A DNA stretch of 47,680 nucleotides from an uncultured Candidatus Saccharibacteria bacterium (GTDB lineage Bacteria > Patescibacteriota > Minisyncoccia > Phycocordibacterales > UBA9973). Both the position numbers and the translations under genes were made by a program. The notes beneath the pieces are model-generated. The model was not told the origin of the DNA and made no database searches. It worked only from the letters and a program-made list of their open reading frames with translations. The stretch spans positions 69,648-117,327 of the forward strand of contig CAYNZJ010000001.1 of NCBI GenBank assembly GCA_964401705.1, read 5' to 3'. This document shows, in pieces, positions 457-46,164 of this stretch (within the stretch, counting starts at the first letter, position 1; each line of letters opens with the position of its first letter).

Positions 457-1737
457 TTAGTTTTTTAAATATTTACAAAAATTTGTTTCGTTGAAGCTAT
501 AGCCTTGTTCAATTTGTTTACGGTCGATATTAAAATATTCAGGGTAAATATATGCGCCAAAATCTCCATAATATGCAATATTTGATCCATCACTTACCCG
601 TATATATGAAATACGCGGTGGCAAAGATGGTGAATCTTGAACCCTAACAATTTTAACCTTATCACCACACATGTATGTGGTTGTGGTATTTGTTTTTGGA
701 GGTGTTGGAACCTCAGGATTTTTAACTTCAGTTTTAAGTTTATCTTTTGTTAAAATAAAATATACATAATCCCATCTAATTTTCATTTCACCATTTTGGT
801 CTATTGTAAAATCTCTGAATGGATTCTCCTCAGAACAATTTGTTTTATAAGCTTTAATAACAAGATCATGCAAACCATCAATATATTTTTCAGGATTATC
901 TGCATTTAAAATAGTACAATGTTCATCTTTGTTAAAATTAAAATAATTTTCATCACCAGTTATACTCGCAAAATCAAAATATAATACATTATTTTTTATT
1001 TCTAAAACTTTACCCATCCATGCTTCTTCATCAACAGTTCCTAAATCTCTCATGACCCAGTCAAAATCTTTGACAAGCCATTTCCCATCAAGGTGTATTT
1101 TAGAAATATTAATACTTTCCTTAACATTTGAAAAAGCTTCTAAGAATGTCTTATAATCCTCATCATAAAAACTAACTAATTTTTCTTGATCTTGTAAATA
1201 TGTTGAATTTTTAACCTGTTCAGTAATCTTTGATTCCAACAAGGAACCGTTATAAAAGTAATGCTTAACCTTATTTAAATTTTCTGACATGAAGGAATAA
1301 TCTCCTGTATTTATTACACATACTAGTTGATCATTGTAAATATAATAATCAACATTAGATTCCAAATGATTACCCTCATAATCACCAAAGGTTTCCAAGG
1401 AAATTTTATATATCTTTTCGTTTTTTATGTAACCAACCAACTGAAAATCAATATCTCCTAATGGTTGATGTATTTGTAGTATATCAGGACGATTTTTATT
1501 GAAATGGCCTCGAAATAAGATCTTTACAGAATACTCATCAATTTGATCTGAAGTTTTTACAATTTCATCAATTTCTTGGATTTTTAATATTTTATCCTGA
1601 TTTCCCATCACAGCTAAATCTTCAACAACCTCCACCTTCTTCAAAAAATTTAAATTTAATGAATCGTTTAAATACAAATAATACCCCACACCCCCAAGCG
1701 TTATTATAATTATTGAAATTATTGTTAATTTTTTCAT
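457..1737 (-). CDS. hypothetical N-terminally membrane-anchored exported protein (array member 1)
   Basis: 426-aa ORF. N-terminal TM helix MKKLTIISIIIITLGGVGYYLYLNDSLNLNFLKK is related to the leaders of the next three ORFs. Only 1 nt separates it from the upstream ORF. Confidence 0.6.
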   Translation of the reverse strand: MKKLTIISIIIITLGGVGYYLYLNDSLNLNFLKKVEVVEDLAVMGNQDKILKIQEIDEIVKTSDQIDEYSVKILFRGHFNKNRPDILQIHQPLGDIDFQLVGYIKNEKIYKISLETFGDYEGNHLESNVDYYIYNDQLVCVINTGDYSFMSENLNKVKHYFYNGSLLESKITEQVKNSTYLQDQEKLVSFYDEDYKTFLEAFSNVKESINISKIHLDGKWLVKDFDWVMRDLGTVDEEAWMGKVLEIKNNVLYFDFASITGDENYFNFNKDEHCTILNADNPEKYIDGLHDLVIKAYKTNCSEENPFRDFTIDQNGEMKIRWDYVYFILTKDKLKTEVKNPEVPTPPKTNTTTTYMCGDKVKIVRVQDSPSLPPRISYIRVSDGSNIAYYGDFGAYIYPEYFNIDRKQIEQGYSFNETNFCKYLKN

Positions 1738-1738
1738 A

Positions 1739-2629
1739 TTATTTTTTGCAAGCTATTTTTAGTTCATCAACTCGATCTTTATCAAAATCAAGGAGTGTTC
1801 CATTTTCGCCCTCGTTCGTAATGGTTATGTCTGCAAGGGTTTCTTTGTCTATGTCTAATTCAAGCCATGCGACAGTTCCACCGTTTGAAATAATGTCACC
1901 TTTTTCATCAACTGTAGGACCAATACGTAAATTGATACGCATAATACCATTTTCTATACTATCAATTAATGTAAAAATCTTGTTTGGATTTTCTTCATAG
2001 ACATTTTTACCTGAAGTGTCTTTTCTAACCCTGAAGTTGTAGATATACTTCCCTTCTTGCTCTTTAGAAAGTTTATATAAAGAATTCTTATTGGCAAGAT
2101 TACTAGAATCTATTATATCCTCAGTCAAATAAGTACAGTCAGCTTGTTGGTGCACCATGTAGTAGCCAGCCCAACCCTTAGGGGCATCTCCTTGACCTTT
2201 TATATACCAGTTATGTGGATCATCATTTGTATGTATGAGATCTAAAATCATATCTGGGTACTTGTCATCATAGACAAATTTTATTTTTGTTCCATCTAAA
2301 AAGAATTTTCCTCTTGCCTTAACTGAAACTAAATTAGAAACATCATATTTTGTAGTTTTCTCACTTTCAAAAAAAGTTCCATCACTTTTTAGAATTATAT
2401 ATGCCGGTGCTGCGTGCGGTGTAAAATATTTACCTAAAATTTGAGGGTCAATTTTTACTATGCTCTCATCGGTCTTTTGCTCTTCTTTTACATCTTTAAT
2501 TTCCTCAACTATTGGTGCAGAATTGCTCCTCTGCAAAAACCCTAAATTTACCAAGTCTTTTGTGTATACAAAATACCCAGCACCAGCGAGGATTACGATT
2601 ATTAGGATTGTGATTAGTAATTTTTTCAT
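1739..2629 (-). CDS. hypothetical N-terminally anchored exported protein (array member 2)
   Basis: 296 aa. Leader MKKLLITILIIVILAGAGYFVYTKDLVNLGFLQ. Shares an internal PQILGKY...DGTF...GKFF.DG.KIKFVYDDK.P module with member 3. Confidence 0.65.
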   Translation of the reverse strand: MKKLLITILIIVILAGAGYFVYTKDLVNLGFLQRSNSAPIVEEIKDVKEEQKTDESIVKIDPQILGKYFTPHAAPAYIILKSDGTFFESEKTTKYDVSNLVSVKARGKFFLDGTKIKFVYDDKYPDMILDLIHTNDDPHNWYIKGQGDAPKGWAGYYMVHQQADCTYLTEDIIDSSNLANKNSLYKLSKEQEGKYIYNFRVRKDTSGKNVYEENPNKIFTLIDSIENGIMRINLRIGPTVDEKGDIISNGGTVAWLELDIDKETLADITITNEGENGTLLDFDKDRVDELKIACKK

Positions 2630-2632
2630 AGA

Positions 2633-3577
2633 CTATTCAAATTTTTTATAATTTTCATTAAAATATTTTTCTTCTTCGAATTCCAGCCCTTTCACTGCGA
2701 ATTGTTCAATTAATTTTCCATCCTGCCATTTTGTTGCACCAATCCCTCCTTTGTATATTTCGACTTTTTGACCTGACAAACCACTTCCGTCACTAAATTC
2801 CATGGTCCCATCAAATCGCATAGTGCCCTTGTAGATATTTTGACCATTTTCAATTTTAAAAAGATTATACTCCACATTATCAGTATAAGGAATGGAAACT
2901 CTTCTATAAAAATAGCTTGGATTCGATTTCAAAATTATATCTTGCTTTGTATAAGTATAATCTATGCCTCGTGAATCTGTCCCATAAATATTTCTATCCT
3001 TGATTTCTAAATTAACCTCCGGAGATTTATCATCGTAGACAAATTTAATTTTTAAACCATCTATAAAAAACTTACCTGAAGCTTGGGTAGGACGATTAGA
3101 AATAAAAGTTCCATCATTATTTAGTATAATATAATCTTCATCGCTATAAAGTGCAATGTATTTACCTAAAATTTGTGGTTCAACACCAGCAAATTTTTCA
3201 TCATGGCAAGATCCTCCATAAATTTCATTTGGTACATTATTATCTTTTAATATTTTACAGCCCGGGTCATCTTGAAAACTCGCCAAAATACTCCACTTAC
3301 CATCTTTTTTAATTGCTATATAATGTGAATCATAATAGATACCAGTAGCAAAATTATCCTTTATAAGATCAATTGTGTAATTACCAGATGTAAAACTTAA
3401 ATCTGATATTATTTTTGATTCTTCATTATTATTCTCAATTTTTAGATCTTCAACTACTGACGAAGGATTATCCCCCTTATTCAAAAACCCAAATTTTATA
3501 AAACTTTTCGAATATACAAAATACCCAGCGCCTGCGAGAATTAGAATTATTAAAATTGTGATTAAAGTTTTTTTCAT
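2633..3577 (-). CDS. hypothetical N-terminally anchored exported protein (array member 3)
   Basis: 314 aa. Leader MKKTLITILIILILAGAGYFVYSKSFIKFGFLNK. Carries the same GKFFIDGLKIKFVYDDKSPE module as member 2. Confidence 0.65.
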   Translation of the reverse strand: MKKTLITILIILILAGAGYFVYSKSFIKFGFLNKGDNPSSVVEDLKIENNNEESKIISDLSFTSGNYTIDLIKDNFATGIYYDSHYIAIKKDGKWSILASFQDDPGCKILKDNNVPNEIYGGSCHDEKFAGVEPQILGKYIALYSDEDYIILNNDGTFISNRPTQASGKFFIDGLKIKFVYDDKSPEVNLEIKDRNIYGTDSRGIDYTYTKQDIILKSNPSYFYRRVSIPYTDNVEYNLFKIENGQNIYKGTMRFDGTMEFSDGSGLSGQKVEIYKGGIGATKWQDGKLIEQFAVKGLEFEEEKYFNENYKKFE

Positions 3578-3578
3578 A

Positions 3579-4457
3579 TTATTCTATGCAAGTGTCCATT
3601 AATTTTTTATTTAATTCATCAACTTGTTTAGGGGTAATCTCGGTCTGTGTTTTGCCCTCTGGGATATAACTTTTATAAATAGAATTAATACAGCCCTCCT
3701 CCTCTTCAGGAGATTCATCCAAAAAATGACTATCAATAAGGACTGAAATTAATGTACTTTTTTGAGTTACTAAATTGTAATAATAATGAGCTACAGCAAA
3801 ATCACACATATTACAATCTGAACCTGCATTAAATTTTTCAGAGACACCAGGATAGGTGATTTCCATCAAGTCCATATTTGTAAGATGAGGCCAGTAATCT
3901 ACCCCATTATCTCTAAACTTCGTCCATGCCTTACCCAAGCCACCATGAGCCCTGTCACCAGAATGAATCTCTGTTTTTTTGTTCAAACTATTACCATCTT
4001 TCTTAAAAACAAATAAGGATGTAACAGTGCTTGATCCACCCATATTGTCTTCCGTTTGAACAATAATTTTATCTTTAAGGTCTTTTATTATTTTATAAGA
4101 AATTGACCCCCTGTAACTATCTTCTTGTTCAGGAAAAAGTATGTACCCTGAACCAATAAAACCATATTCATCTTTTTCTGTTTCAATTTTTTCAAATTCT
4201 TTATTACATTTTTCGATGTTTATGTTTTCATTAATTTCGAAACCTTCCCCAAAACATAAAGGGTGAATAAACCCTATTTCGGACTGCTCTACATTTTCAT
4301 TCTTAACCCCACTTTCAGTATTTACTGACGGTTGCTCAACTTCCCTCGCCTGCAAAAACCCTAAATTTATCAAACCTTTTGTATGAGCAAAATACCCAAG
4401 CCCAGCGAGGATTAGGATTATTAGGATTACTACTAGAGATTTTTTTGTGGAAGTCAT
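3579..4457 (-). CDS. hypothetical N-terminally anchored exported protein (array member 4)
   Basis: 292 aa. Leader MTSTKKSLVVILIILILAGLGYFAHTKGLINLGFLQ. Cys-rich ectodomain with no motif I recognise. Confidence 0.65.
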   Translation of the reverse strand: MTSTKKSLVVILIILILAGLGYFAHTKGLINLGFLQAREVEQPSVNTESGVKNENVEQSEIGFIHPLCFGEGFEINENINIEKCNKEFEKIETEKDEYGFIGSGYILFPEQEDSYRGSISYKIIKDLKDKIIVQTEDNMGGSSTVTSLFVFKKDGNSLNKKTEIHSGDRAHGGLGKAWTKFRDNGVDYWPHLTNMDLMEITYPGVSEKFNAGSDCNMCDFAVAHYYYNLVTQKSTLISVLIDSHFLDESPEEEEGCINSIYKSYIPEGKTQTEITPKQVDELNKKLMDTCIE

Positions 4458-4711: not shown

Positions 4712-5356
4712 TTATTTAAGTGTAATACTTGTAATTACAACTGGAGTTAATGGTTTATCACTTGGGTCAGTTGGAGTATTGTTGATTGCGGTAACTACAT
4801 CCATGCCAGATGTAACTTTACCAAATACAGTGTGTTTAGTATCAAGGAAATTATTTGGTGCAACATTGATAAAAAATTGACTACCATTAGTATTTGGCCC
4901 AGCGTTAGCCATAGCAATTGTACCAATATCATTATGGTTTGTGGCAGTTATTTCATCGTTAAATTTATAACCTGGGCCACCTGTACCCCACATTGATTTT
5001 TTAGTATCATCTTTTGAAAGTGGGTCCCCACCTTGATTCATAAATCCTTTGATAACGCGGTGGAATTTTGTATTGTTATAAAATCCTTCACCGGCTAATT
5101 TGGTAAAATTCGCGACTGTATTTGGAGCTGTATCACTAAGCTGTATAGTAATGTCTCCCATATTTGTGTGCATTGTTGCGTACATAATCTTTTTATTATC
5201 TTCTTTATTATTTGTAATAGGATCTTTTTTTACTTCAGGAATCGTTTCTGTTGGTACTGGGTCTGTTATTGGAGCATTTATTTTATTTCTATTCACAAAG
5301 TAAATCCCCGCCACAATACATACCAATATTAAAATTATAATTAAAACTTTTTTCAT
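4712..5356 (-). CDS. cyclophilin-type peptidyl-prolyl cis-trans isomerase, membrane-anchored
   Basis: 214 aa. N-terminal TM helix, then FHRVIKGFMNQGGDP, GGPGYKFNDE, GTIAMANAGPNTNGSQFFI and HTVFGKV cyclophilin motifs. Confidence 0.85.
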   Translation of the reverse strand: MKKVLIIILILVCIVAGIYFVNRNKINAPITDPVPTETIPEVKKDPITNNKEDNKKIMYATMHTNMGDITIQLSDTAPNTVANFTKLAGEGFYNNTKFHRVIKGFMNQGGDPLSKDDTKKSMWGTGGPGYKFNDEITATNHNDIGTIAMANAGPNTNGSQFFINVAPNNFLDTKHTVFGKVTSGMDVVTAINNTPTDPSDKPLTPVVITSITLK

Positions 5357-15036: not shown

Positions 15037-15069
15037 ATTTAATTGTGGAAAACTCCCCTAATTATATCA

Positions 15070-15092
15070 ACTTGGAGGTCCGACCTCCAAGT
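15070..15092. repeat. REP-like 23-bp perfect palindrome, copy 1 (central C)
   Basis: ACTTGGAGGTC-C-GACCTCCAAGT. Lies 4 nt downstream of the RAYT stop codon and directly upstream of a TGATATAAT box facing the RHS gene. Confidence 0.9.
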
Positions 15093-15095
15093 AAG

Positions 15096-15719
15096 TTACT
15101 TTGGATCTAAATCTTCTTTCCTTTTACAAATATCTTTCCAAGTAATGTCAGCATATTTCTTATATTCTCCAACATTCGTATATTGCCCTAAAACTATACT
15201 GGTATCACAAATAGATTCATTGGTTTTGTTTAAATACTCATCAAGACTTGATTTACTCAACTTGGAGGTCGGACCTCCAAGTGAATCTAAGTTATTATAG
15301 TTAACATAAACAGATAAATGTAATAAATATCTATCGTCTGGTATATATTTAGATTTAAATTTACCTTGAAATAAGACACCATTCCTATTATATTTTTCAT
15401 TAAAATACATTGTGTACCCACCAAATCTTTGCATAAATTTTTCAATACCCTTGTCTATTAAGGGAGTTAAGATTAAATGAAAATGATTCGGATTAATACA
15501 ATACGCAACGATATCTACCAACTTGGAGGTCGGACCTCCAAGTGAATCTTTTCTAAAAGAATTTTCATAAATACTACCAATTGGTTTTTCTGTGTTAAAT
15601 TCTATAAGACTTTGCACAAAACGATTTAGATCTTCTTTATCTAAAATTATATCGCGTTTATCTGACCCACGATTATAGATATGATAGTATTGCCCTATTT
15701 CAAAACTATGCTTTCTCAT
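15096..15719 (-). CDS. IS200-like Y1 (HUH) transposase / REP-associated tyrosine transposase (RAYT)-like
   Basis: 207 aa. YHIYNRGSDKRDIILDKEDLNRF, HUH motif NPNHFHLIL, GVLFQGKFKSK, and a Tyr-containing YVNYN motif. Flanked and interrupted by the 23-bp palindrome. Confidence 0.8.
   Translation of the reverse strand: MRKHSFEIGQYYHIYNRGSDKRDIILDKEDLNRFVQSLIEFNTEKPIGSIYENSFRKDSLGGPTSKLVDIVAYCINPNHFHLILTPLIDKGIEKFMQRFGGYTMYFNEKYNRNGVLFQGKFKSKYIPDDRYLLHLSVYVNYNNLDSLGGPTSKLSKSSLDEYLNKTNESICDTSIVLGQYTNVGEYKKYADITWKDICKRKEDLDPK
15260..15282. repeat. REP-like palindrome, copy 2 (central G), inside the RAYT CDS
   Basis: ACTTGGAGGTC-G-GACCTCCAAGT within the shared 31-mer CAACTTGGAGGTCGGACCTCCAAGTGAATCT. 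Encodes DSLGGPTSKL in frame. Confidence 0.9.
15521..15543. repeat. REP-like palindrome, copy 3 (central G), inside the RAYT CDS
   Basis: Same 31-mer as copy 2. It also encodes DSLGGPTSKL in frame, just upstream of the HUH motif. Confidence 0.9.
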
Positions 15720-15733
15720 ATAATTATTATACT

Positions 15734-15756
15734 ACTTGGAGGTCCGACCTCCAAGT
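15734..15756. repeat. REP-like palindrome, copy 4 (central C), overlapping the RAYT promoter
   Basis: On the minus strand: ACTTGGAGGTCGGACCTCCAAGT-AG-TATAAT-AATTAT-ATG. The palindrome supplies a TTGGAG -35-like hexamer (15749-15754) and the 17-nt spacer. Confidence 0.9.
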
Positions 15757-15853
15757 AAAGTACAAGTTGGATTTGTGGTGGGGGGGGTACAGATGGGGGT
15801 CCTTGTTTTATCTGTTTTGGTAGGAATTTTTTTATTATTATTTATTTTTATTT

Positions 15854-38989: not shown

Positions 38990-39745
38990 TTATATATTTA
39001 TTTTATTTACTGGTTCACATATTATATCACTGTAATTTGTATTTTGCTCAAGATTCATTAACCCACTACGAGAAAGTTCAAGTATCGCCAAAAAGCTAAC
39101 AATGACTGAGACTTTTCTTTCACGATATTCCATGTGCTCAAATTCAGATAACTCGGCAATTTTTGAAAAAGATACTTTTTGATTAATCTTTTGTAAATTA
39201 GTTGTAATTTTAAATATCATCTCTTCCAAAGAAACTATTTTATTAACTGAAATTTTAGGTAGATTTTCCTTTTCTTCGGGTAATCCTGCAATTAAAAAGT
39301 TAGCTAATTCCAAAAGATTATCTAGATTAATGCTTTCGTGTGGAATAAATGAAACAGAATTAATACTTTTCTTTTTAGATAATTGAATATATGGTGATGG
39401 AATATTAGTTGTGTAGCTTTTAACAACATTTCGCAGGGATTCTAATATTCGAAGTCTTTCTTCTAGATTATGGCTGGCATTATCCATTTCTTCATCTTGG
39501 GTTTTACCATCATCTATTAAAATTTTGGATTTTAAATAAACCAAAGTTGCGGCAATAGATAAAAATAAAGTTACATTGGGTAAATCTTGGCTAATGTTAC
39601 CTTGGATATATTTTATATAATCATCTGTTACTTCTGATAAAGAAACATCACTAATGTGCATCTTCTTTTTTTCAATCAAAGATAGTAAGACATCCAGCGG
39701 TCCTTCAAATTTATCAGTTTTAACAAGATAAATATTTTCGTCCAT
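38990..39745 (-). CDS. scpA: segregation and condensation protein A
   Basis: 251 aa. FEGPLDVLLSLIEKKKMHISDVSLSEVTDDY, a kleisin N-terminal motif. Confidence 0.85.
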   Translation of the reverse strand: MDENIYLVKTDKFEGPLDVLLSLIEKKKMHISDVSLSEVTDDYIKYIQGNISQDLPNVTLFLSIAATLVYLKSKILIDDGKTQDEEMDNASHNLEERLRILESLRNVVKSYTTNIPSPYIQLSKKKSINSVSFIPHESINLDNLLELANFLIAGLPEEKENLPKISVNKIVSLEEMIFKITTNLQKINQKVSFSKIAELSEFEHMEYRERKVSVIVSFLAILELSRSGLMNLEQNTNYSDIICEPVNKINI

Positions 39746-39867
39746 CCCGTTAGAAATAGATCGCGATACACATACCGCATTCTAGTTTATTTAATCTAAT
39801 AATTTTAATGAATTCCATAATTTATATATTTCTATTTTATTTTTGTCGATCGCGATTTCTAACGGGA
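39746..39867. repeat. about 120-bp inverted-repeat intergenic element, copy A (CCCGTTAGAA ... TTCTAACGGG)
   Basis: Left arm CCCGTTAGAAAT(AGAT)CGCGAT at 39746-39767. Right arm ATCGCGATTTCTAACGGG at 39849-39866. AT-rich core. The left arm abuts the scpA ATG. On the minus strand an ATG at 39870-39872 opens MSPVRNRDRQK* (39837-39872). Confidence 0.8.
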
Positions 39868-39876
39868 GACATATTA

Positions 39877-41286
39877 TTAAATTAACTTAATTCCTAGTTC
39901 TGTAATTTGCTTGTTAGGCATTTCACTTGGTGCCCCCATCATTAAATCTTTACCTTCACCGGTTTTTGGGAAAGCGATAACTTCGCGAATATTAGGTTCG
40001 TTCTGCAGTATCATTACAATACGATCAATCCCTGGAGCAAATCCTCCGTGTGGTGGTGCTCCGTATTTAAAGGCTTCAAGCATGTGAGCAAATTTTAATT
40101 GCTGAGTCTCTTCAGGAATACCTAGTAAATTAAATACTTGTTTTTGTTCATCAGAATTATGAATACGAATAGAACCCGATGAAAGTTCGTAACCATTTAA
40201 AACCAAATCATACGCATTTGCTCTTATAGATAATAAATCAGAACCAGTCATAAATTTATCTCTATCTTCTGGATGGACTGAACAAAATGGATGATGTTGA
40301 GCTTGAAGAGATCCATCATCTAGTTTTTCAAACATTGGAAAATCTAATACCCAGCAAAATGCGAGCTCATTAGGGTCTTCTTTGTTAATTCTTAAGTCAG
40401 GTTTGTCAGATCCATATTTTTCCATACATTCTTTATAAGTTAATCTTGGAAATGGAATTTGTGATATTTTTTTATCAGGATAAAGTTTGTTTACTAATTC
40501 AATAAACATTGGCTCGGTAAAAGATAGAATTTCTTCTTGATTAACAAAAGACATTTCGTAATCGAGTTGTGTGAATTCTGGTTGTCTGTCTCCACGAGTA
40601 TCTTCATCACGCATACAACGAGCTATTTGGAAATATTTTTCAAACCCTGCAACCATACAAAGTTGTTTAAATTGTTGAGGTGATTGTGGAAGAGCATAGA
40701 ATTTACCATTCTCAAGCCTTGATGGTACTAAATATTCACGAGAACCTTCTGGGGTTCCTTTCATAAGCATTGGAGTTTCGATTTCAATAAAATCATTAGC
40801 ATGCATATATTCACGGAAAAAAGTTATGATTTTATCGCGCATGCGAATATTGTTTTGCATTCTTTGTGTTCGCAAATCAAGGTAACGATATTTTAATCGA
40901 ACATCTTCCCCAACTTCAAAAGAATCTTTGTCTAATTCAAATACAGGCGTTTCGGCTTGATTTAAAACTTCGATTTCAGTAACTTCAAGTTCTACATCAC
41001 CACCGACAATATTAGGGTTGATGTTTTTTTCAGGGCGTTTGTTAACGATACCGGTTACCTTTAGGACCCATTCTGGGCGGATATCTTTAGCAACATCTAG
41101 AGCTTCGGTATGGTTAGGCAATACTACACATTGGAGTATTCCGGACATATCCCGTAAGTCAAAAAAGACCATTTTACCTTGGTCCCGACGGATATTTACC
41201 CAGCCAGCCATAACTACAGTATTGCCGACATTTTCGCTTATATTCTTTACTAAAATTCTTCCTTGCATATAAGGATATAGTAGCAT
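39877..41286 (-). CDS. aspS: aspartyl-tRNA synthetase (bacterial-type core, compact, no GAD insertion)
   Basis: 469 aa. OB-fold N-terminus (GWVNIRRDQGKMVFFDLRD), motif 2 region CMRDEDTRGDRQPEFTQLDYEMSF, GSDKPDLR joined directly to FCWVLDFPMFE, and motif 3 GFAPGIDR. The true start may be the internal MQGRILVK. Confidence 0.9.
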   Translation of the reverse strand: MLLYPYMQGRILVKNISENVGNTVVMAGWVNIRRDQGKMVFFDLRDMSGILQCVVLPNHTEALDVAKDIRPEWVLKVTGIVNKRPEKNINPNIVGGDVELEVTEIEVLNQAETPVFELDKDSFEVGEDVRLKYRYLDLRTQRMQNNIRMRDKIITFFREYMHANDFIEIETPMLMKGTPEGSREYLVPSRLENGKFYALPQSPQQFKQLCMVAGFEKYFQIARCMRDEDTRGDRQPEFTQLDYEMSFVNQEEILSFTEPMFIELVNKLYPDKKISQIPFPRLTYKECMEKYGSDKPDLRINKEDPNELAFCWVLDFPMFEKLDDGSLQAQHHPFCSVHPEDRDKFMTGSDLLSIRANAYDLVLNGYELSSGSIRIHNSDEQKQVFNLLGIPEETQQLKFAHMLEAFKYGAPPHGGFAPGIDRIVMILQNEPNIREVIAFPKTGEGKDLMMGAPSEMPNKQITELGIKLI

Positions 41287-43978: not shown

Positions 43979-45745
43979 TTATTCTTCTATAAATCCGCCG
44001 GTTTGGTGACTCCAAAGTTCGGCATATATTCCGCCTTTATTTAATAATTCAGTATGTGTTCCATCTTCGGCAATTCCCCCATCTTCGAGTACTATTATCC
44101 GATCCATCTTTTGAATAGTTGACAATCTATGCGCTATTACAATTGTGGTTCTACCTTTCATAAGCTCAACAAAAGCTTTTTGAATATAATCTTCACTAAC
44201 GCTATCGAGCGAGCTTGTGGCTTCATCCAATATTAATACCGGTGAATCCTTAAGCATAGCCCGAGCTATAGCTACACGCTGACGTTCCCCGCCGGAAAGT
44301 TTAACCCCACGTTCCCCAACCAAAGTATCATAACCATTAGGAAGTTTTATAATAAAATCATGCGCATAGGCGGATTTAGCAACAGCGATAATTTCATCAT
44401 CCGATGCACCAACTTTACTATATGCAATGTTTTCTTTAATTGTCCTATGGAAAAGCATTGGCTCTTGAGGCACATATGAAATTACTTGACGTAAATCATC
44501 TTGTAAAACATTTTTAATATTTTGCCCATCAATTGTAATTTCGCCATTTGTTGTGTCAGTAAATCTTAATAACAATTTTGTAATTGTTGATTTACCCGCA
44601 CCCGAATGCCCCACAAGCCCAACATGGCTCCCTGAATTTATTTTTAAATTTAAGTTTTCAATTACTGGGTTACCATTTTGATAAGCAAAACTAACATCTT
44701 TAAATTGTATATCCCCGTCTTTCATTTTCAATTCTTCTGGATTCTTTGGGTCTTTTATTTCAATATCTAAATCAAAAATATCCACAACTTCTTTCATTTC
44801 AATTAATGACCTGACTATTCGTGTTATTGATTTACCTAAATTCCAAAGTATATCAAAAAGGTTAACCATATAACTTTGTAAAAGTATAATCATACCAACT
44901 GAGATTTTATCTGCATACCACATTTTTATTGCCATAAACATAATAACTATTTGCAAAACTCCCATCATTAAAGACTGGAATACTAACCTTGTATTAGCAT
45001 AATTCCATGCTTTCATTCTTTTAGTTTCTTCATCTTGAGTAACCTTTTTAAAACCTAATTTTTCAAAAAAACTATTACTAAATATTTTTATATTAAGAAT
45101 ATTTATTATTGAGTCTGAAAGTCTACCTGTAACAACAGAATCTGCTTCGGATTCTAATAAATCATATTTAATTTTTTGTTTTACAAAAACTATTGTTATT
45201 AATATATAAATAATAGACCATACAACAAAAACCCAGGCCATTATTGGGATTTTAATAAATAAAACAACTAAAATACCCCCCAAGGTAACTATTCCGAAAT
45301 ATATTTGAAAACTTACTGATTCAAAAAAGACATCAAATGATCTATTAAATCTTTTTGTTTTTGCAATGATACTACCTGTAAAATTATTAGAAAAGAAATT
45401 ATATGAATGGTTTAAAATTTTATTAAACGAAAAATCATAAAGTCTTTTCATGACTTTACTAGTAAAATAAGATTCCGTAAAACTAGCTGCCCGATAAACG
45501 ATTATATAAACCAAAATTATAGTACAAAGTAACAAAAGCAAATGTAAGGATTGATTAAATATAATACCTTTAGGTAAACCAGAAGATAAAGTATCAACCA
45601 AGTCTTTATATATAAATGGTTTTAAAATTAATTCAGCAATTATACCAATTCCATAAAATAAAAAAGTTAACACTAAAGACACCCAATGTTTTTTCATTTG
45701 GGGCCATAGGTAAAACAGTATTCGTTTAAAATTTATATCTTTCAT
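43979..45745 (-). CDS. ABC exporter, fused permease/ATPase (MsbA-like)
   Basis: 588 aa. Six-TM N-terminal half. Walker A GHSGAGKST, signature LSGGERQR, Walker B LILDEATS. Confidence 0.9.
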   Translation of the reverse strand: MKDINFKRILFYLWPQMKKHWVSLVLTFLFYGIGIIAELILKPFIYKDLVDTLSSGLPKGIIFNQSLHLLLLLCTIILVYIIVYRAASFTESYFTSKVMKRLYDFSFNKILNHSYNFFSNNFTGSIIAKTKRFNRSFDVFFESVSFQIYFGIVTLGGILVVLFIKIPIMAWVFVVWSIIYILITIVFVKQKIKYDLLESEADSVVTGRLSDSIINILNIKIFSNSFFEKLGFKKVTQDEETKRMKAWNYANTRLVFQSLMMGVLQIVIMFMAIKMWYADKISVGMIILLQSYMVNLFDILWNLGKSITRIVRSLIEMKEVVDIFDLDIEIKDPKNPEELKMKDGDIQFKDVSFAYQNGNPVIENLNLKINSGSHVGLVGHSGAGKSTITKLLLRFTDTTNGEITIDGQNIKNVLQDDLRQVISYVPQEPMLFHRTIKENIAYSKVGASDDEIIAVAKSAYAHDFIIKLPNGYDTLVGERGVKLSGGERQRVAIARAMLKDSPVLILDEATSSLDSVSEDYIQKAFVELMKGRTTIVIAHRLSTIQKMDRIIVLEDGGIAEDGTHTELLNKGGIYAELWSHQTGGFIEE

Positions 45746-45863
45746 CCCGTTAGAAGCAGGTCGCGATCTTTTTTAAAAATCAAAACTCTACTTTTTAAAT
45801 AATTATCAATAATTAAATAAGCACTGTTCCCGTTATTTATGCGTGACAGCGGCTTCTAACGGG
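45746..45863. repeat. about 120-bp inverted-repeat intergenic element, copy B (CCCGTTAGAAGC ... GCTTCTAACGGG)
   Basis: Left arm at 45746-45757 abuts the ABC-exporter ATG. Right arm at 45852-45863. The left arm shares about 19/23 nt with copy A, including TCGCGAT. On the minus strand an ATG at 45867-45869 opens MNPVRSRCHA* (45837-45869). Confidence 0.8.
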
Positions 45864-45876
45864 ATTCATTTACTAT

Positions 45877-46164
45877 TTATTTTGCGCCGAATTTAGTGAT
45901 GGCTTTACGAAATCCGCCTTTTTTGTCAGACAATTCTTTTGCCCCGCGAGTAACGGTAGCTACACCAACGCCAAGCTTTTCAGCAATTTCGCGTTGAGCA
46001 ATTCCAGATTCAAGCATTTTAACTATTTGCCAGCGACGAGCAATTTCTTCATACTCACCAGCAGTCAAAAGGTCATCTAAAAATTCATTTAACAAATTAC
46101 CCCCTGCCCCAGCAACTTTTTTAATAAGAGTGTTTATTTCTTTTTTGTATTCTTCCATGCTCAT
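45877..46164 (-). CDS. TrpR-related YerC/YecD-family DNA-binding protein
   Basis: 95 aa. LLT..E...IA.RW.IV..L..G..QREIA..LGV..ATVTRG helix-turn-helix pattern. Confidence 0.75.
   Translation of the reverse strand: MSMEEYKKEINTLIKKVAGAGGNLLNEFLDDLLTAGEYEEIARRWQIVKMLESGIAQREIAEKLGVGVATVTRGAKELSDKKGGFRKAITKFGAK

Follow-up and report, generated by a model that had tools for sequence, protein, structure and literature searches.

The hairpins that precede scpA and an ABC exporter gene in the window, meaning the whole 47,680-nt stretch analysed here (Candidatus Saccharibacteria bacterium, CAYNZJ010000001.1 positions 69,648 to 117,327), are best explained as two copies of a small non-coding mobile foldback element. 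In this reading, whose probability is put at roughly 0.8, the element is MITE-like, generates a 4-bp target duplication and survives in CPR bacteria mostly as copies that sit on start codons. Insertion would duplicate 4 bp of the target, usually TGAA, including the TG of a start codon, and the final purine of the element would then rebuild an ATG or GTG ahead of a gene that is not altered otherwise. The original ATG, now displaced, would remain on the far side of the element and read into its left arm, resulting in a mini-ORF that begins M-x-P-V-R.

Both copies lie on the minus strand, as do the genes that flank them, and positions refer to the window. Copy B, with the core CCCGTTAGAA...TTCTAACGGG, occupies 118 nt at 45746..45863. 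Read on the gene strand, its 5′ arm CCCGTTAGAA runs from 45863 to 45854 and its 3′ arm TTCTAACGGG from 45755 to 45746, where it abuts the exporter ATG at 45745. The outermost base of the element, T at 45864 (x1), is partnered by the A at 45745 (y1), and across the family this first pair is UA in 41 and CG in 37 of 87. The target-site duplication TGAA is found on the left at 45865..45868, where its TG and the A at 45869 make up the relic start codon, and on the right at 45741..45744, where the last base of the element (A, 45745) completes the working ATG of the exporter. The relic ATG (45869-45867) and its read-in to the 5′ arm constitute the mini-ORF MNPVRSRCHA* (ATG AAT CCC GTT AGA AGC CGC TGT CAC GCA TAA, 45837..45869). 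Upstream, a TrpR-like ORF of 95 aa (45877..46164) ends with a stop at 45879-45877, 7 nt from the relic ATG. Downstream, the exporter of 588 aa (43979..45745) starts at the element boundary, a position backed by orthologs of 586-589 aa. The public gene call (P0121) has 572 aa and begins 16 codons downstream of the boundary ATG, and the start prediction seems to have been misled by the hairpin.

Copy A is the same element, 121 nt long (39746..39866), with arms at 39866-39857 and 39755-39746 and the outer bases T at 39867 (x1) and A at 39745 (y1). It lies between aspS (469 aa, 39877..41286), whose stop at 39879-39877 is 4 nt from the relic ATG (39872-39870), and scpA (251 aa, 38990..39745), whose boundary start ATGGAC agrees with that of its orthologs. 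The mini-ORF of this copy, MSPVRNRDRQK*, spans 39837..39872. The left repeat has decayed here, reading ATGTCT against ATGGAC at the gene, with two of the four positions matching. In both copies the mini-ORF stop (39837 and 45837) lies exactly 91 nt from the downstream ATG despite element lengths of 121 and 118 nt, an identity of spacing that is probably a coincidence. The exact arm 10-mer occurs four times in the window, all within the two inverted pairs, and no third copy was detected in the window when up to 3 mismatches per arm were allowed. A DNA-uptake sequence was rejected as an identity for the motif because in the window it occurs only as these two spaced inverted pairs. The RNA folds of both copies are stronger than those of dinucleotide shuffles (z of -3.5 and -5.4), and the presence of the same arms at no fewer than 120 further loci rules out chance for the element. 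The predicted folds place the A of the downstream ATG in a pair within an outer helix of 12-13 bp, and the helix resumes past a 4-nt bulge.

A second palindromic repeat of the window that is unrelated to the element, ACTTGGAGGTC(C/G)GACCTCCAAGT, occurs four times in 700 bp at 15062-15763, and also upstream of an orthologous ABC exporter in a relative (spacer, L126 about 1440-1465). At 1634-4445 four tandem paralogs of about 290-315 aa are spaced by ~0.9 kb and have a 101-nt repeat common to their 5′ ends; three of the four start ATGAAAAAA.

The first-pass annotation had described the geometry of these junctions accurately. The ATG lies 4-7 nt past the upstream stop in both copies, the two mini-ORFs read as it gave them, codons 3-6 of each are the 5′ arm and hence the peptides share M-x-P-V-R, and both the arms and the fold bear out its proposal that the arm pairs with the 10 nt just before the downstream ATG, placing that start at the base of the stem. 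The shared peptide start is nevertheless fixed by geometry, as it consists of the relic ATG, one hybrid codon and the CCC GTT AGA of the arm.

The sites without the element in relatives indicate how the mini-ORF came about. In two ScpA orthologs (81% and 71% identity) aspS ends 1-2 nt before the scpA start ATGGAC/ATGGAT, with no element in between, and the empty junctions read ...aataat|ATGGAC and ...ataaat|ATGGAT. Similarly, exporter orthologs of 74%, 71% and 66% identity start ATGAAAGAT, ATGAAAACA and ATGAACGTA, and have different spacers and no element. These ortholog starts identify, for both copies, the right-hand repeat and its start codon as host sequence and the left-hand ATG as the duplicate; the empty sites thus make the mini-ORF the old start codon, duplicated and reading into the left arm. 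As judged by sequence comparison, the mini-ORF is shown to be a by-product of insertion. The upstream spacer of copy B is not collinear with the spacer of its relatives, so for this copy the comparison is not a clean filled/empty pair. A further relative of 62% identity (L125 2990-3003) reads gaataatTAACGGG|ATGGAC / gaaTAAtTAACGGG|ATGGAC at the aspS-scpA junction, with the last 7 nt of the right arm standing alone before the start. From its sequence this remnant looks like the scar of a deleted copy, and the same site may therefore have been struck repeatedly, or the insertion may be old. Copy B is kept in related strains that are ~95% identical. In runs X1, X5, X7 and X9 contigs end at the arms (window 45741-45775 and 45843-45877), where depth is 2-6 fold up, and other contigs in those metagenomes join the same arms to different interiors.

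The family was defined by a scan for two arms 80-110 nt apart, taking one genome per species, which gave at least 120 loci; the 144 elements analysed are the loci among the matches listed plus secondary copies in those loci. Every analysed copy was selected for near-perfect arms, so that the invariance of the arms is partly a matter of ascertainment. Judged by their titles, the loci listed belong mostly to Patescibacteria (Saccharibacteria, many Parcubacteria lineages, Microgenomates, Doudnabacteria, Berkelbacteria, Kazan), while about 20 of them come from Omnitrophota, Planctomycetota, deltaproteobacterial or other MAGs; viral contigs contain only 2 matches, and carriage by phages was rejected on that count. 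The ends of the element form an 11-bp inverted repeat, Y-CCCGTTAGAA ... TTCTAACGGG-R, with a near-invariant core CCCGTTAGA. Immediately outside the arms, the two flanking bases are complementary in 134 of the 144 copies listed (T-A 76, C-G 58), and the terminal repeat extends to a 13-bp helix in which 98.1% of cells are paired (13 pairs, 87 distinct end-sets). Six of these pairs vary on both sides, and the covariation values observed were reached by none of 500 shuffles. Arm variants carrying two mismatches are mostly compensatory (CCCGTTAGAG...CTCTAACGGG five times, CCCGCTAGAA...TTCTAGCGGG once). The element is flanked by a 4-nt direct repeat whose two units agree fully in 90 of the 144 copies listed, against 12.9 expected when partners are shuffled. 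Among these 90, TGAA is the commonest repeat (48%, enriched 44-fold), followed by TAAA, TGAG, TGGA and TTGA, and the duplicated target is most often T-N-N-A.

Element length is typically ~100-130 bp, within a full range of 24 to ~140 nt, and interiors are unrelated between copies except inside subfamilies. The strong differences between interiors are unusual for a recent MITE burst and count against the mobile-foldback reading. Within single genomes closer pairs are found: two copies in L116, whose interiors are 96% alike, lie at different start codons, and two in L072 have identical interiors and share right-flank sequence, which may reflect segmental duplication. Short versions of 24, 27, 47 and 51 nt, consisting of the arms and a small loop (L086 726-846, L087 2990-3013, L057 6015-6041), occur in Omnitrophota or deltaproteobacterial MAGs, except for the 27-nt one, which is from a Falkowbacteria MAG (L057); some are in tandem. 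In a Bdellovibrionales MAG (L107 5058-5165) the arms flank a complete tRNA-Ala(CGC) gene at 5074-5147, as if they were able to enclose cargo. In the 886 kb of flanking DNA no arm pair with the flanking repeat and arms 0.15-4 kb apart encloses a gene, no autonomous parent was detected among arm pairs 150-5000 bp apart, and no transposase, integrase or RAYT is among the recurrent neighbours; the lack of a parent or transposase there counts against the mobile-foldback reading. The recurrent neighbours, named by eye from sequence, are a pilus ATPase, PilC, ABC exporters, a large NTPase, EF-G and LysRS. A full-text literature search of limited coverage returned no description of this element or of start-codon-rebuilding bacterial repeats.

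The position of the copies relative to genes is dominated by start codons. The right junction is an ATG (66) or GTG (19) that opens an ORF of at least 60 codons in 85 of the 144 copies listed, and counting also a second register, in which the whole ATG is contained in a TATG/CATG repeat, raises the start-associated copies listed to 91. Because the TG of the repeat and the terminal purine of the element together read ATG or GTG, the first base of the working start is supplied by the element. The outermost element pair, which includes this base, is kept in 84 of the 85 start-codon copies. Of the 85, 60 still have the original ATG on the left; the left repeat equals the right repeat at positions 1-4 in 70, 62, 71 and 64 of the 85, so that conservation is lowest at the G of the relic ATG, and where the left start codon has been lost ATG is commonly replaced by ATT or ATA. 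Start-codon positions are held by 72 of 103 CPR copies versus 5 of 24 non-CPR copies listed (p = 1.5e-5), the latter mostly duplicating TAAA in intergenic DNA. The genes downstream are unrelated, with 84 families for the 91 start-associated copies listed, and a regulon was rejected for this reason. About 21% of genes in these loci open with ATGAA. The concentration of surviving copies on start codons may accordingly be attributed to a preferred target that resembles ATGAA-type gene starts, and to the coding sequence being left intact in hosts that would need no Shine-Dalgarno (SD) sequence. Twelve relic ATGs sit 2 nt past the stop of an upstream long ORF and are read as ATGA-type overlaps. A leaderless-type -10 box is found at 22 of 60 relic ATGs compared with 21% of control genes, which represents some enrichment.

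No SD-like motif precedes any of the 41 window ORFs of 120 aa or more. A TATAAT-like box lies 4-9 nt before the ATG in 18 of the 41, and the others mostly start a few bases past the previous stop; initiation in this organism thus seems to do without SD pairing. That scpA and the exporter lack an SD sequence, as had been noted, is correct, yet it is uninformative about them, as the count over the window makes it the rule in this organism and not a trait of the two genes. Of the long ORFs in the CPR loci listed, 8% have an SD-like motif ahead of them and 22% a -10 box at a distance of 5-9 nt. The anti-SD motif itself is present in only 48% of the Parcubacteria surveyed (PMC9297842).

In such a host, ribosomes leaving the upstream gene could start on the relic ATG, open the stem through its 5′ arm and expose the rebuilt start. 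This unmasking by the mini-ORF is a putative expression route for copies A and B only, proposed tentatively and at somewhat less than even odds, and it cannot be obligatory for the family. Ribosomes might alternatively pass across the base of the closed stem, and either route would make the insertion tolerable. No RNA runs were found over the window locus or any other copy, and the groundwater metatranscriptomes from the L074 study contained no contig over L074. A broader and more doubtful model has the family either adapted to the opening codons of genes or actively seeking them out, in bacteria whose initiation dispenses with SD pairing; the closed stem would join the old and the rebuilt start so that ribosomes cross or open it. 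Ribosomes would then come from the upstream stop or from a leaderless 5′ end, the stem being crossed or opened through the relic ORF. The element would be either translation-transparent or a hairpin-gated switch, a use that the conservation of the outermost pair, and the one-sided orientation of one subfamily described below, might reflect.

The first-pass annotation went further than the geometry, proposing an evolved coupling device in which the mini-ORF acts as a sensor and its translation melts the stem, tying distal to proximal expression strictly. The relic ATG 4-7 nt past a stop, the 5′ arm forming codons 3-6 and the pairing of the downstream start codon in the predicted fold all fit such a device, as does a genome that lacks SD sequences and depends on coupling or leaderless starts. 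Retention of the outermost pair in all but one of the start-codon copies while neighbouring repeat positions decay argues in the same direction, and there is some excess of elements whose length brings the TAA of the arm into the reading frame of the mini-ORF (39/23/23). Insertion geometry alone, however, yields the mini-ORF, and in both window copies its stop lies those 91 nt short of the gene start, far for reinitiation. Copies without the ATG had been named beforehand as evidence that would speak against the device, and this is borne out in part, since about 15 of the 85 start-codon copies (~18%) have no left start codon. A comparison of the mini-ORFs, likewise suggested at the outset, finds M-x-P-V-R preserved as the arm dictates, but the 60 peptides otherwise share nothing and range from 6 to 40 codons, so that neither length nor sequence is constrained. 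The same element moreover stands before the 84 unrelated families and at non-start sites, and close relatives express the same genes without it. A purpose-built device is therefore unsupported by the comparison and is considered very unlikely.

Features that give the element a direction bear on a different alternative, namely that it is a structured regulatory RNA which spread by transposition and was then domesticated and retained by the host, for example as an RNase III site or 5′ stabiliser giving a near-leaderless mRNA, as a standby site or as a thermometer. One subfamily, with arms extended by CGCGRTC... (CGCGWYCTRY) and a 4-nt bulge, includes both window copies, and in all 31 of its cases the bulged arm lies on the side of the downstream gene, with no reverse case. 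This points to a directional constraint, which none of the promoter, terminator and mini-ORF features tested accounts for, and a function at the level of the host would be compatible with it. The interior is also purine-rich on the sense strand, where AGGAG and GGAGG exclusively occur (7:0 each), folding is marginally more favourable for the sense than for the antisense RNA (p = 0.03), and the arms stay intact while the flanking repeat decays. Other subfamilies, in contrast, are found facing either way with respect to the gene downstream, and across the family the two strands carry -10-like boxes equally often. When an internal promoter or terminator was sought, copy B did not exceed its shuffles and the matches in copy A were at chance level. 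The interior has no family-wide conservation, there is no tie to a gene class, and Rfam 15 has no match at gathering score anywhere in the window, with only chance-level matches over either copy (E at least 0.29, at a cut-off of E up to 10). A domesticated RNA is thus held to be very unlikely. The same low probability is assigned to a hairpin that moves or recombines in a folded single-stranded DNA form, as REP/REPIN with RAYT or integron attC sites do, instead of as a cut-and-paste MITE. The pairing itself is conserved through compensatory arm changes, interiors and lengths are variable (24 to ~140 nt), and a tRNA-Ala gene lies between the arms in L107, all of which would suit a folded intermediate. 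The core GTTAGAA/TTCTAAC also resembles the integron R-box consensus, GTTRRRY/RYYYAAC. A regular 4-nt flanking duplication is nonetheless foreign both to REP/RAYT and to attC recombination, in the flanking DNA no gene of integrase or RAYT type recurs, and the neighbours are housekeeping genes and not cassette arrays. The box order is likewise inverted relative to attC, with GTT 5′ and AAC 3′ on both strands. An attC site as such was rejected because of this reversal, R″ (RYYYAAC) being 5′ and R′ (GTTRRRY) 3′ in attC and GTTAGAA 5′ and TTCTAAC 3′ here.

If the mobile-foldback reading holds, the element is unusual in combining ends that are shared across phyla, arms that covary and a last base that repairs the disrupted start codon. 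CPR/Patescibacteria are a large and barely cultivated share of bacterial diversity, many of them apparently without SD-dependent initiation. Dozens of species tolerate a stable hairpin of 13 bp or more on the start codon of ordinary, probably essential genes, scpA in the present case, and these hairpins constitute a natural experiment on what CPR ribosomes cope with. Were the start-codon-targeting model true, the element would report on how CPR bacteria initiate translation. In practical terms, the element fragments metagenome assemblies at its arms and misleads gene callers, as in the exporter, which is 16 codons too short on record.

Known systems resemble the element in part. Leader-peptide attenuators (ermC, cat) and the masking of coat and replicase starts in MS2 have in common with it a short upstream ORF that overlaps the helix hiding a start, and whose translation can open that helix. 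Their leaders, however, are conserved and gene-specific and carry stalling or regulatory sequence, whereas the peptide here would be accidental, is frequently missing and stands before genes that are unrelated. Ribosome shunting in the CaMV 35S leader and bypass in phage T4 gene 60 and in the byp elements of Magnusiomyces mitochondria similarly involve a short ORF or stop before a stable stem, a landing site after it and matched flanks; these being eukaryotic, phage or mitochondrial systems, the likeness suggests a possible route for this element. As regards mobility, piggyBac duplicates TTAA and has the end CCCTAGAAAG, its ends beginning CCC...GGG. The piggyBac superfamily and the related bacterial IS1380 family share with the present element a 4-bp duplication with T first and A last, and CCCTAGAAAG may be compared with CCCGTTAGAA, a resemblance that serves as a lead. 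In contrast to piggyBac/IS1380, an extra Y/R pair lies between the duplication and the CCC here, and no such transposase was found near any copy listed. Rickettsia palindromic elements (RPE) are likewise small, mobile and palindromic repeats, and bacteria with reduced genomes tolerate them within genes, but RPEs are translated in frame within proteins whereas these elements stand at the gene boundary, outside the product. The closest likeness in build is to bacterial MITEs and foldbacks such as Neisseria Correia, pneumococcal RUP/BOX, enterobacterial ERIC and cyanobacterial Nezha, which are also non-coding, ~100-150 bp long and bounded by terminal inverted repeats, generate a target duplication of fixed length, occupy many unrelated loci and form a long hairpin when transcribed. 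Unlike those families, this element has the same ends in several phyla around interiors that bear no relation to one another, its two arms show helix-type covariation, most CPR copies rebuild a start codon with their last base, and the flanking DNA yielded no parent insertion sequence. Eukaryotic introner-type DNA transposons become introns, the target duplication completing a splice site. The analogy with introners is one of logic only, in that terminal base(s) and target duplication together recreate a needed signal and so neutralise the insertion; in the present case it is a start codon that is restored, and the mRNA retains the element.
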